Shown piece by piece: positions 6,102-9,238 of a stretch of DNA of 12,071 nt. The notes beneath the pieces are model-generated. The model was not told the origin of the DNA, did not search any database, and saw nothing but the letters and a program-made list of their open reading frames with translations. How positions within the stretch are numbered: position 1 is the first letter of the stretch; the number at the start of each line of letters is the position of its first letter. The DNA is taken from UHGV virus genome UHGV-0371921; one strand, 5' to 3'. Both the position numbers and the translations under genes were made by a program. Source of the stretch: a virus.

Positions 6102-6222
6102 AGCACCGAGCCCACACAGGTTCCTCATGCTAAAGCATGGCCTGAAGAGGCAAACGTGCATAATTCCTGTGCATTGGGACGTATAAAACCCTGTTCACAC
6201 TCTCATTTCCAGAGGAGATTTT

Positions 6223-6438
6223 ATGAAGATAGAAATATTTGGTGGAGCTGACAACACTCGTGGCCTGATTTACCTTGAATTCGATGAATCATACCTGCCA
6301 GAGGTGTTAAATATAGACTCTGTTGCTGAGGCTTTGGGAGTAAACCCTAAAGAACTCCACTCTTGTGCTGAGATCGATGGTTGGGAAGAGACCATGAACA
6401 TTGATTTCAGTGAAGTAGAGGATGAACCGCTGGACTGA
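6223..6438 (+). CDS. hypothetical acidic protein (71 aa)
   Basis: ATG 6223 with GAGGAG 5 nt upstream; last gene of the rightward block. Confidence 0.6.
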   Translation: MKIEIFGGADNTRGLIYLEFDESYLPEVLNIDSVAEALGVNPKELHSCAEIDGWEETMNIDFSEVEDEPLD

Positions 6439-6532
6439 CGCACAATTAGCTGCCCGGCCAAAGTGCTGGAAGCGCACCTATAACACATCTTTCAACTAAA
6501 TTTCCCACCACCACAATCACTTACCTTCCACA

Positions 6533-6565
6533 CATGACTGTTTGCTTGTTTAGTGAGCAGTCATG
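6533..6565 (+). other. inverted repeat CATGACTG-N17-CAGTCATG immediately upstream of a promoter
   Basis: 8 bp arms at 6533-6540 and 6558-6565. Confidence 0.4.
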
Positions 6566-6567
6566 CC

Positions 6568-6595
6568 TTGACATTCTTGCCTATCCTGATAAAAT
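6568..6595 (+). promoter_or_regulatory. sigma70-like promoter TTGACA-N16-TAAAAT reading into the ORF-free zone
   Basis: TTGACA 6568-6573, 16 nt spacer, TAAAAT 6590-6595; no ORF with a ribosome binding site follows. Confidence 0.45.
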
Positions 6596-7119
6596 TAAGT
6601 TCTTCTCTTTTCTTTTACCGAGTAATTCGGGTTTTCTGTTCTCTTCGGTTTGAAGGGGTATGGAGATACACCTGAGTGAACAGGGTGAACAACCGAACCA
6701 TTGGCTATGGCATTAGCATGGCGAAGCGGACGGGTGACGAAAGAGGGGCCGGAGGACACCAGTCACTGCCATATGATATATGGGTGATAACCTGAAGAGT
6801 CTGAATAAGTGTTTAAGTACCAGTCAGAGGAAAAGGTGAATGGTAGCCGAAGGGGAGGGGGGTTTCTTGTATCTTTAATTTGTATATTATGTATACACTT
6901 GTAAACCAATCTCATCTGAATCTGTTTACCACACAAAGCGAATAGAGACAAATATTACCTATTAAACTTGAATTATTTATAGAAAATACCGCAACACCAC
7001 TTAAGTCTTTGATTTTACACACAAATCCTACAGATATTCAGCCTCCCTATTTAACATACCTGTAACATATTCCATACTCTACCTGCCTGATCAATTTACC
7101 CAACTACATCCCCATATTT

Positions 7120-7350
7120 TCCCTGTCTGTACTACCCCTGCCCCGCCGGGAGTCCCGTCATATCTGGCTTTCCAGCAAATATCACACCCACAAATATCAT
7201 TGCCTGAAGAGGGTTTCATCCCATAATACATACCTTGCCTGAAGATCGCTTCATACACCACGTAAATTTTTTAATTGACCTGCAATTTCTCCTCAGATAT
7301 CCCCCTGTCCCGCCGGAGAGGTTGTCTTTTCCCACACAGACCTGAAGAGT
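7120..7350. repeat. degenerate ~175 bp duplication carrying CCCTG(C/T)CCCGCCGG and CCTGAAGAG motifs
   Basis: CCCTGCCCCGCCGGGAG at 7134-7150 versus CCCTGTCCCGCCGGAG at 7302-7317; CCTGAAGAG at 7203-7211 and 7341-7349 (also CCTGAAGAT at 7238-7246). Confidence 0.5.
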
Positions 7351-7544
7351 CAGTCAGAAATATCTGAATGGGCCCAGTTCTGCCCTGTCATGAGCGGTAG
7401 CGACTGGAGTGCTGCCAGGCGGACGGAATGGGAATACTTCTCATTCTTATAATAATTCTCAAATATCGAGGCAGTGAGGCAAATTAATAGGTGAGGCCGT
7501 TCACACAGTGGCACAACATTTGCAATCTATTTTGTGAGGGTGAA

Positions 7545-7579
7545 TGAGAATACCTATCATTGTGAGAATCTTTATCATT
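7545..7579. repeat. imperfect tandem repeat TGAGAAT(ACC/CTT)TATCATT x2
   Basis: Copies at 7545-7561 and 7563-7579, 14 of 17 positions identical. Confidence 0.5.
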
Positions 7580-7933
7580 ACGGGCAATTTAACATAATAC
7601 CCATTATGCGCACCACTGGCGATACATACAGGGATTGATAACATAGGTTACTGTTTACGCACATAACAATTATATTTCTTATTATTTGTGGGGGGATATA
7701 GTTAGCAGCCAATAGATTAGATATTGACCTGCAGACTTCTGACCGTCCAGACGTCTAAACGCCCACACAACAAGGATTATACATACAACACTGAATGTAA
7801 ACAGGGCCGCAAAAATGCTACCATACAAGCTTGTAAATTTTTCATGCAGCACTTGACAAAGAGGAGAAAAACTTGTCTGACATAATATGACACTTTAAGC
7901 ACATTAAACACACTGAACATAATTGACATGCAT

Positions 7934-8038
7934 GACTGTTTACGCTGTCACTATTCACGCTATTACTATTCGCTCGCTTACTGTTCATGACCTTTACTGT
8001 TTACATTCCCAATAGTTTACATAGCTTACTGTTAACGT
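7934..8038. repeat. iteron-like cluster of ACTGTTTAC / TTACTGTT direct repeats
   Basis: Exact ACTGTTTAC at 7935-7943 and 7996-8004 (also 7650-7658 and 8472-8480 outside the cluster); variants TTACTGTTCA 7978-7987, TAGTTTACA 8013-8021, TTACTGTTAAC 8026-8036; all in one orientation. Confidence 0.6.
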
Positions 8039-8064
8039 ATAGATTATTTACTCAAAAATGATAA

Positions 8065-8084
8065 GCCATGCCATTCGTTTGCAT
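8065..8084. repeat. 20 bp direct repeat GCCATGCCATTCGTTTGCAT, left copy
   Basis: Identical 20-mer recurs at 8296-8315. Confidence 0.8.
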
Positions 8085-8130
8085 GACAATAATTATACAT
8101 GACAATAATCGCACTGATTATAATTAGCAT

Positions 8131-8282
8131 GACATAATATAAAAGCAGGGCAACTATTAGCAGATCTATAGTTGCCTTGCTTGTTATGTCATGATTAACT
8201 GAATACAAGGCAACTATGATCTGATTAATAGATTGCAGACAAACTATCACGGGGGTGATGGTTACTGCTTTTATATTATGTC
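8131..8282. repeat. 16 bp inverted repeat pair GACATAATATAAAAGC (8131-8146) / GCTTTTATATTATGTC (8267-8282) enclosing the palindrome
   Basis: Exact reverse complements. Confidence 0.75.
8149..8176. repeat. 28 bp palindrome GGCAACTAT-N10-ATAGTTGCC (candidate protein-binding site)
   Basis: 9 bp arms are exact reverse complements; further GGCAACTAT copies at 8209-8217 (direct) and 8314-8322 (inverted); 12-mer CAAGGCAACTAT is shared by the arm at 8168-8179 and the copy at 8206-8217. Confidence 0.75.
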
Positions 8283-8295
8283 GCGACTCCGTCGC

Positions 8296-8315
8296 GCCAT
8301 GCCATTCGTTTGCAT
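8296..8315. repeat. 20 bp direct repeat GCCATGCCATTCGTTTGCAT, right copy
   Basis: Identical to 8065-8084; preceded by small hairpin CGCGAC-TCC-GTCGCG (8282-8296). Confidence 0.8.
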
Positions 8316-8929
8316 AGTTGCCTTATTGTTACAGATAGAATAATTGTATTGTTAATTATTTCTTATCTTTCTATTAGTCATCTAATGATTCCAGTTAGTA
8401 TAGTAACGTACAGTAAACATTAGACGACTAAAGATTTCTCTGCTTATGGTAACCTAACGTGACAATTCCAGACTGTTTACGAAAAATGTTGACACTTGGG
8501 CCGATTTATGTTATGCAGTTTACACGAATAATTATTTTATGCAGGTATTGACTATTCCGTTATTCTATGGTTGGAATAAATGCTTAGCAGGCTATAGAAT
8601 GGCGAGCGTACGTAAATTCTGAGATCTGGCGGCTATAGTTATACTCGATTTTTCACGTAGAAAACGCTTTTGTAGTTATGTAAGTGTATGACTTATAAGA
8701 ATTTTTAGTTGTTGACAAGCTATTGAAGATATGCATCAGGTTAAATTTTGTGCAAATGCTGCATTACGTGCAATTTTGGAAGGAAAAACGTGTAAAAATG
8801 GCCCTGCTACCACACAATGAAAAATTATGCAATAGTTATTTTATATGTATGTTTGTACAGTGGGGTTAATTGCTGGCTTGTTGATTATTCCATTTGCCAG
8901 GCGGGGCCATTTGTGGTAGGAAAAGAGGA

Positions 8930-8975: not shown

Positions 8976-9110
8976 TTATTTGTTGCTCATCCAGTTTTCC
9001 CAAGCTGCCTGATAATCTGCCTCACTACGGCGGATCTCTTCTTGCTCTTCAAGGCGGATCTCTTCTTCCAGGTACCCCAAGATGTCAGCCTTTTTGGTCT
9101 GGCGTAACAT
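8976..9110 (-). CDS. alternative -1 frame ORF (44 aa, MLRQTKKADILGYLEEEIRLEEQEEIRRSEADYQAAWENWMSNK), possibly the true C-terminal part of the 9238 gene
   Basis: Protein-like acidic sequence with EEEIR repeat; no strong SD of its own; fully overlapped by the track ORF in another frame. Confidence 0.3.
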   Translation of the reverse strand: MLRQTKKADILGYLEEEIRLEEQEEIRRSEADYQAAWENWMSNK

Positions 9111-9238
9111 CCAATCATCTTTTTACGAGTGAAGATCTTATAAGCTTTCTCGCAAACCTCTTTTTTGCTACCTTTCTGGACTTCAAGAATTCTGTAGGCC
9201 ATGTACTGAACTAATTTAAGCTGATCCAGACGTTTCAT
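8987..9238 (-). CDS. hypothetical protein; 3' half likely out of frame (see frameshift finding)
   Basis: ATG 9238 with AAAGAGGA 7 nt upstream; N-terminal 40 aa protein-like, but residues after about 40 are Lys/Arg/Ser/Trp-rich, typical of out-of-frame translation. Confidence 0.4.
   Translation of the reverse strand: MKRLDQLKLVQYMAYRILEVQKGSKKEVCEKAYKIFTRKKMIGCYARPKRLTSWGTWKKRSALKSKKRSAVVRQIIRQLGKTG

Follow-up and report, generated by a model that had tools for sequence, protein, structure and literature searches.

Short words reiterated on one strand border the direct terminal repeats (DTRs) of phages T7 and SP6. In T7 the words are CCTAAAG, reportedly named SRL and SRR by Dunn and Studier in 1983, and a check of the sequence placed them on a single strand, to the left and right of the 160-bp repeat as well as within it. 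Checked in the same way, SP6 carried 14 CTTAGT words around a repeat of 174 bp; the arrays of the two phages hold 8–14 copies at a period of about 13 bp. To our knowledge the short repeats beside the T7 DTR have never been assigned a function. Reiterated words serve as terminase recognition sites in the R sites of lambda cosB, the pac hexamers of P1 and the pacL boxes of SPP1. The packaging sequence of T7 consists of the right-end promoter and origin PhiOR together with the concatemer junction, at which the small terminase is said to recognise pacB; according to a recent review, the recognition and cutting of concatemers by DTR phages are less well understood than cos or headful packaging. Here an undescribed instance of short oriented repeats beside a phage terminal repeat is reported: the 9-nt word CCTGAAGAG in the virus genome UHGV-0371921, of which a stretch of 12,071 nt (the window) was analysed.

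The window comes from a phage of the genus Vequintavirus, its identity to rV5-like coliphages such as ime and APECc02 being about 97%. Its genes run on the plus strand up to 6438 and on the minus strand from about 8950, with some 2.5 kb between them. On the rV5 map (Kropinski et al. 2013) this interval is drawn as a grey “non-coding” box without open reading frames (ORFs) between genes 163 and 164, and no function, termini, motifs or promoter were given for it; the content of the box as described here is new annotation. The span in which the words occur, 6141–7349, takes in the last intergenic gap of the plus-strand gene block and the left 900 bp of the non-coding box.

Vequintavirus DTRs are short, 459 bp in Gotham and 458 bp in EdH4 and HdK5, and the Gotham record (137,025 bp) carries a repeat_region at both ends (1–459 and 136567–137025). 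The Gotham repeat mapped with 95.7% identity to 7418–7877 (460 bp), a feature without strand that marks the physical genome ends, so that the window is, by homology to the published ends of its relatives, a concatemer junction. The records of Gotham, YN3 and bov25_3 open exactly at window base 7418, the termini of the bov phages having been typed with PhageTerm in the source study, and the records of Gotham, ECP2309 and YN3 end near 7877. This placement of the DTR gives a right-end non-coding arm at 6439–7417 and a left-end non-coding arm from 7878 to about 8950.

Four exact copies of CCTGAAGAG were found in the window, at 6141, 6791, 7203 and 7341, all on the plus strand and as listed by an earlier first-pass annotation of this DNA; 0.12 were expected, and none of 200 shuffles reached four. 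The near-copy CCTGAAGAT at 7238 was also confirmed, and the same site reads CCTGAAGAG in 14 of 18 aligned genomes, that is, the window and 17 related junctions that are 90–99.9% identical to it in this region. The five sites, all on the plus strand, are lettered A to E from left to right. Copy A (6141–6149) is intergenic, with the small genes 162 and 163 on either side, and is present in 17 of the 18 genomes, and copy B (6791–6799), inside an ultraconserved block, is identical in all 18 together with its flanks. Copy C (7203–7211) opens a 20-nt unit, TTGCCTGAAGAGGGTTTCAT; its motif is invariant throughout, the three preceding bases being variable. Copy D (7238–7246), the site with CCTGAAGAT in the window, belongs to a second unit 35 bp after copy C, and copy E (7341–7349), present in 17 genomes, starts 77 nt before the DTR. 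Measured from start to start, copies B to E lie 77–627 nt before the DTR.

In the complete Gotham genome nine copies of CCTGAAGAG were counted, eight of them on the plus strand, for an expectation of about 0.6–0.9 per strand. Five of the nine fall within 1,177 bp ending 100 bp before the right DTR, all on the plus strand, and for a given stretch of that size the binomial probability of a five-copy cluster is about 2e-10. The first-pass annotation had named the frequency and bias of the motif in the rest of the genome as the decisive comparison, and the outcome was divided: the other copies occur at about 2–3 times the summed expectation (three plus, one minus), whereas those clustered before the DTR are far from random in distribution and lie strictly on one strand. 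Between 7350 and 9000, which covers the DTR and the left arm, CCTGAAGAG was absent from either strand in all 18 genomes. Tandem Repeats Finder reported no array at the motif units, which do not form a true tandem array, and a scan of IMG/VR with CCCCTGYCCCGCCGG gave only single chance matches in unrelated contigs. The word is a real, conserved, one-strand motif clustered in gene-free DNA just before the DTR.

All five sites are orthologous across the 18 genomes, and each has been lost by point change or indel in at most a few of them. At copies C, D and E, which stand in a loosely constrained part of the arm, 24 of 27 positions (89%) were invariant, as against 59% of the other positions in 6876–7417 (Fisher p = 0.002). 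The copies do not keep their spacing. Between D and E many genomes have a deletion of 17 bp or an insertion of 48 bp, and the words persist while such indels alter the distances. In L128 (IMG/VR UViG_3300010279_000001), the most divergent genome, and in L135 the insertion at about 7293 consists of one more TTGCCTGAAGAGGGTTTCAT unit in degenerate form (TTGCC..AGAG..TTTC). L128 also has a 46-bp insertion directly after copy A with AAGAG on both sides, and indels seem to fall at or beside the motif in these genomes (at 6149 and about 7293 in L128 and at about 7293 in L135).

The locus resembles the T7 and SP6 ends in having phage-specific words of 7–9 nt on one strand of non-coding DNA that directly adjoins an exact DTR, in several same-strand copies (five, all plus) enriched over the rest of the genome (five of nine). 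With the pacB-type sites of T7 and T3 it has in common that reiterated, oriented short words stand close to the cleavage positions. A strong outward-facing promoter lies 850 bp before the DTR, at 6568, as one does at the right end of T7, where PhiOR at 39229 precedes the repeat by about 550 bp. That the words are oriented, one-sided, conserved above background and tolerant of spacing, together with the T7/SP6 analogy, is the ground on which a role in packaging or end formation is favoured. The copies of CCTGAAGAG may be cis-acting protein-binding sites for end processing or packaging, a candidate role that we advance tentatively and at somewhat less than even confidence. A binding site for a regulator had been proposed by the first-pass annotation; of this the protein-binding part is plausible, but the sites adjoin the DTR in a non-coding arm and not in a gene-regulatory region.

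The binder, we infer, would be a phage protein, for which the small terminase and an accessory junction-binding protein are candidates, acting in packaging or end formation rather than in replication or transcription. In replicating DNA the words stand on the right of the concatemer junction, which the bound protein would mark and to which it would give a direction. Marking of this kind, the part that pacB is credited with in T7, would allow two precise cuts, at 7417/7418 and 7877/7878, and the start of packaging.

Several observations weigh against such a role. The copies are sparse and irregular, with successive spacings of 650, 412, 35 and 103 bp from A to E, where the T7 and SP6 arrays are dense and have a period of about 13 bp; there are five of them over 1.2 kb, on the right side of the DTR only, so that the same word does not occur on both sides as it does in those phages. 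Copy A stands 1.28 kb from the cut site and between genes, and copy B is inside a block that resembles an RNA gene, so that the five need not have a single DNA-level role in common. A periodic array more like that of T7, but of another word, TGTTTAC, is present in the left arm and could equally be the packaging signal: the segment directly after the DTR (7878–8130), hypervariable with 3% invariant columns and 115–325 bp long among the genomes, carries TGTTTAC-type words at a 15–16 bp period and is reminiscent of the short repeats arrayed behind the T7 DTR. The junction region is moreover restricted to one genus. A DNA search, a protein search with gene 163 and an 18-mer metagenome scan returned only Vequintavirus sequences and no relatives outside the genus, and a covariation test was therefore impossible.

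The words themselves show a likeness as well. The phage is a 137-kb myovirus unrelated to T7. In the T7 right arm (NC_001604, 39700–39714) the sequence CCTAAAGAGGGTCTT starts 78 nt before the DTR, and the last motif copy of the window starts 77 nt before its own. Between the T7 sequence CCTAAAGAGGGT and CCTGAAGAGGGT of the window, 11 of the first 12 bases agree; the counterpart compared with CCTAAAGAGGGTCTT was CCTGAAGAGGGTTTC at 7203–7217, which likewise agreed in 11 of the first 12 bases and may do so by coincidence. The chance of two such word families being so alike is estimated at roughly 1% when strand and register are allowed for, and coincidence could explain the likeness.

The surroundings of the words contain longer similarities; the first-pass annotation had suggested a duplicated module of about 175 bp. 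Its individual elements were recovered. The copies at 6791 and 7341 extend to a common 12-mer, ACCTGAAGAGTC; CAGTCAGA follows the same two copies and occurs in the window only at 6821 and 7351, with offsets from the motif start that differ (30 vs 10 nt). The CCCTG(C/T) elements were found as CCCCTG(C/T)CCCGCCGG, in two plus-strand G/C boxes. The first, CCCCTGCCCCGCCGG at 7135–7149, is identical in 13 of the 18 genomes; the second, CCCCTGTCCCGCCGG at 7302–7316, lies in an indel-rich stretch and is less conserved than the first because several variants of it exist (for example CCCTCCCCGCCGCCGG). The fixed distance said to separate box and motif was not borne out, the offsets being 68 nt (7135 to 7203) and 39 nt (7302 to 7341). 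As for the module, nothing aligned as a 175-bp duplication: stringent local alignment gave only words of 19, 12 and 20 nt, but a gapped alignment detected about 70 bp of degenerate similarity between 7134–7200 and 7301–7365, with a score reached by none of 300 shuffles and with the two CCTGAAGAG copies out of register. A weaker similarity joins 6790–6848 to 7340–7375 (gapped alignment; 1 of 300 shuffles).

These similarities bear on the possibility that the words are relics of local duplication, the right arm having expanded through slippage or through the duplication of short modules, and the words being functionless and conserved through close kinship only. Both degenerate alignments are in keeping with it, as are the indel-rich stretch 7270–7400, the extra degenerate unit of L128 and L135, and the adjacency of units C and D at a 35-bp spacing. 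Drift alone would not account for the conservation of the words, however: motif positions are invariant more often than their flanks, by the proportions given above, and the words survive where the remaining module has diverged beyond recognition and the spacing has changed. The copy at 7238 is moreover an exact motif in most genomes, and the five sites keep a strict strand polarity over 1.2 kb. The relic proposed by the first-pass annotation thus stands as to the degenerate similarity and the extra unit, and falls short as to the invariance of the motif; as an explanation of the words we consider it rather unlikely.

The promoter mentioned above is a near-consensus sigma-70 promoter on the plus strand at 6568–6595 (TTGACA, 16 nt, TGaTAAAAT; 11 of 12 matches, with an extended -10 element) that points towards the genome end. 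Both hexamers are intact in L128, in which the spacer has about seven changes and 2 additional nt, and the sequences become identical again a few bases past the -10 element. Thirty near-consensus sigma-70 promoters, this one among them, were found in the genome, of which 28 face along the gene direction. Behind the promoter lies the ultraconserved non-coding block that holds copy B (6597–6864, plus strand), a candidate RNA of about 265 nt with 252 of 268 columns (94%) invariant over the 18 genomes. For comparison, the DTR is 73% invariant and the remaining arm 60%; in the adjacent gene the figures are 48% for third and 83–89% for first and second codon positions. The exact 3' edge of the block is a G run, GGGGAGGGGGG at 6852–6862, which is followed by an AT-rich stretch and is polymorphic in length (GGGG(G)AGGGGGG; G4–6, A, G5–6 among genomes). 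Conservation stops right after the run, and three genomes switch to unrelated sequence there.

Coding was considered for the arm and rejected. Substitutions in the small ORFs of 6440–7420 are non-synonymous, the G run varies by 1–2 nt, and single-base indels occur in one genome (L005); in the minus-strand ORF of the same interval two motif copies fall in different frames. The block with its promoter is a candidate for an unannotated non-coding RNA, or for an origin or packaging element, and may be more interesting than the motif and the part most worth an experiment. A literature search, one query of which was loosely phrased, found no transcriptome or functional study of the non-coding box.

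If the block is transcribed, the motif could act at the RNA level, as a functional element of a conserved non-coding RNA (about 265 nt) whose start would be near 6602, at the sigma-70 promoter, and whose end would coincide with the G run near 6864; copies further downstream would then lie in a read-through transcript, as possible further sites for the same RNA-binding factor. The promoter hexamers, kept while their spacer diverges, and a conservation that begins at the promoter, exceeds that of codon positions 1 and 2 of the adjacent gene and ends at the G run are consistent with this, and so is the failure of the ORFs within the block. Every copy of the word is on the transcribed strand. The predicted fold, made blind to variation, places copy B in a purine-rich internal loop between two helices and five of six recurrent polymorphisms (at 6683, 6699–6703 and 6776) in unpaired positions. 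The folding energy of the block was nevertheless not better than that of shuffles (z = -0.8), no compensatory changes were seen in it because it hardly varies, and Rfam 15 gave no match (whole window at the gathering threshold; three sub-regions at E up to 10), the best score being 13.3 bits against a gathering threshold of 45.3. The conserved block ends before copies C, D and E are reached, copy A precedes the promoter, and no local hairpin is common to the five copies. An RNA-level role for the motif therefore has, in our estimate, a fairly low probability.

A combination of this role with the favoured packaging sites can be formulated, in which 6597–6864 would be a new structured RNA with CCUGAAGAG as its protein-recognition loop, the same factor would sit on the DNA words, and RNA and DNA sites would serve together in end recognition and packaging. 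It would bear a loose likeness to the phi29 packaging RNA, the phage here being a terminase-dependent myovirus, and we rate it as a long shot.

Neither transfer RNA nor transfer-messenger RNA genes were found in the window. A hammerhead ribozyme, suggested by the resemblance of CUGAAGA to the core CUGANGA, was rejected: no covariance model matched, and by eye helix II after copy B would need G-G closing. A lambda nut boxB element (GCCCUGAAGAAGGGC) was set aside as well, a short stem being possible at copy C only and the phage not being lambdoid. Copies C and D and both G/C boxes lie in a C-rich, G-poor tract of the plus strand (6900–7330; 51 G and 124 C of 431, GC skew down to -0.56), a composition that would suit Rho loading for transcripts heading to the genome end. 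Long-range RNA pairing between the G-rich block and the C-rich tract had a duplex energy about 2.7 standard deviations below that of mononucleotide shuffles, which were the sole control, and was not counted as evidence.

The same layout can be read as a replication-origin module of the transcription-primed (R-loop) type, with the words as putative initiator or accessory sites. The order of elements fits, the promoter being followed by the G-rich block (78 G and 36 C of 226), by GGGGAGGGGGG and by a stretch of 33–35% G+C, and in T7 the promoter at the right end, PhiOR, is regarded as an origin that works together with the junction. The rV5 paper places a skew change at 104425–105475, within this region, but its authors ascribe that change to the switch in transcription direction. 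The words, for their part, stand mostly downstream of the AT-rich stretch and not around it. We regard an origin as distinctly improbable.

In favour of a promoter (for a polymerase or sigma factor specific to the phage) or of an operator for nearby genes, the word is short, oriented and over-represented, and copy A stands in front of gene 163. Only four copies occur in the other 135.8 kb, though, with no link to gene starts, and behind four of the five clustered copies no gene follows up to the genome end. Sigma-70-type promoters are used throughout the genome, in agreement with the host-type sigma-70 promoters reported throughout rV5 in the rV5 paper. The non-host polymerase promoter proposed by the first-pass annotation finds no support in these counts, the motif not standing in front of genes genome-wide, and a promoter or operator function of any of these kinds is very improbable.

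In PhiTE, an rV5-like phage, intergenic pseudo-ToxI repeats are transcribed as non-coding RNA and were expanded to escape ToxIN, and their copy number differs between isolates. The window resembles it in having short repeated units in an intergenic locus of a related phage, and its 35-nt units starting with TTGCCTGAAGAG could accordingly be imagined as a decoy RNA that mimics a repetitive antitoxin RNA, in which case the number of units would vary. That number does differ between the genomes compared here (two vs three). Unlike the PhiTE repeats, however, the units are not near-identical tandem repeats: C and D are alike over their first 20 nt only (17 of 20), and Tandem Repeats Finder saw no array. 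No matching host antitoxin was found: in 5,426 E. coli genomes and 72,556 plasmids no similarity to the motif region was seen, and no Rfam antitoxin family matched. The chance that the units are decoys is accordingly very slim.

Vequintaviruses are common coliphages in therapeutic use, and their 2.5-kb non-coding box has been blank since 2013. It now holds a concatemer junction, a polar family of words on one side of it and, behind a promoter, a block with stronger conservation than the gene beside it; the words and the block are small, concrete targets for mutation. If the words are indeed a packaging signal, packaging-competent plasmids or transducing particles could be made for this phage group. 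The mapped DTR would also help to correct the start coordinates in more than 100 database records. Vequintavirus records in GenBank start at scattered positions, several of them inside the junction yet off the true ends, and more than 100 could be re-oriented to the DTR.

A second word family, AAATATC, is interleaved with the motif on the plus strand, at 7177, 7192, 7358 and 7461, and all four copies are kept in the 18 genomes. Nine copies occur in the window against 3.0 expected, four of them within 290 bp across the left edge of the DTR. In the left arm, complex repeats occupy 8065–8325, where GCCATGCCATTCGTTTGCAT occurs twice (8065 and 8296) and four copies of AAGGCAACTAT alternate in orientation; 8131–8148 and 8265–8282 form a perfect inverted repeat of 18 nt. 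The repeats of 8065–8325 look like a set of putative protein-binding sites or a cruciform.

In the right arm the palindrome TGTATA-N5-TATACA at 6882–6898 has kept its arms around a variable 5-nt spacer, and three genomes have lost it entirely by deletion. The core of the palindrome, unlike the flanking arms, resembles the centre of E. coli dif. A link to FtsK was considered and rejected: a KOPS-like word, GGGGAGGG, is present and KOPS words are not enriched, the dif-like stretch TGTATATTATGT is variable or deleted, and the neighbouring “FtsK” ORF has no FtsK domain. That ORF (83 aa, 8987–9238, minus strand), named “DNA translocase FtsK” in some records, lacks Pfam support, its best E-value of 0.076 being to an unrelated domain. 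The gene at 621–938, annotated as a “sigma 54 modulation factor” in rV5, encodes a ribosome hibernation factor (RaiA/HPF-like). About 19 GenBank records bear the name “Campylobacter phage”, and their identity of 90–97% to these coliphages points to mislabelling or contamination. CP057073.1 (PLSDB; 137.5 kb) is listed among E. coli plasmids but is the genome of a Vequintavirus.

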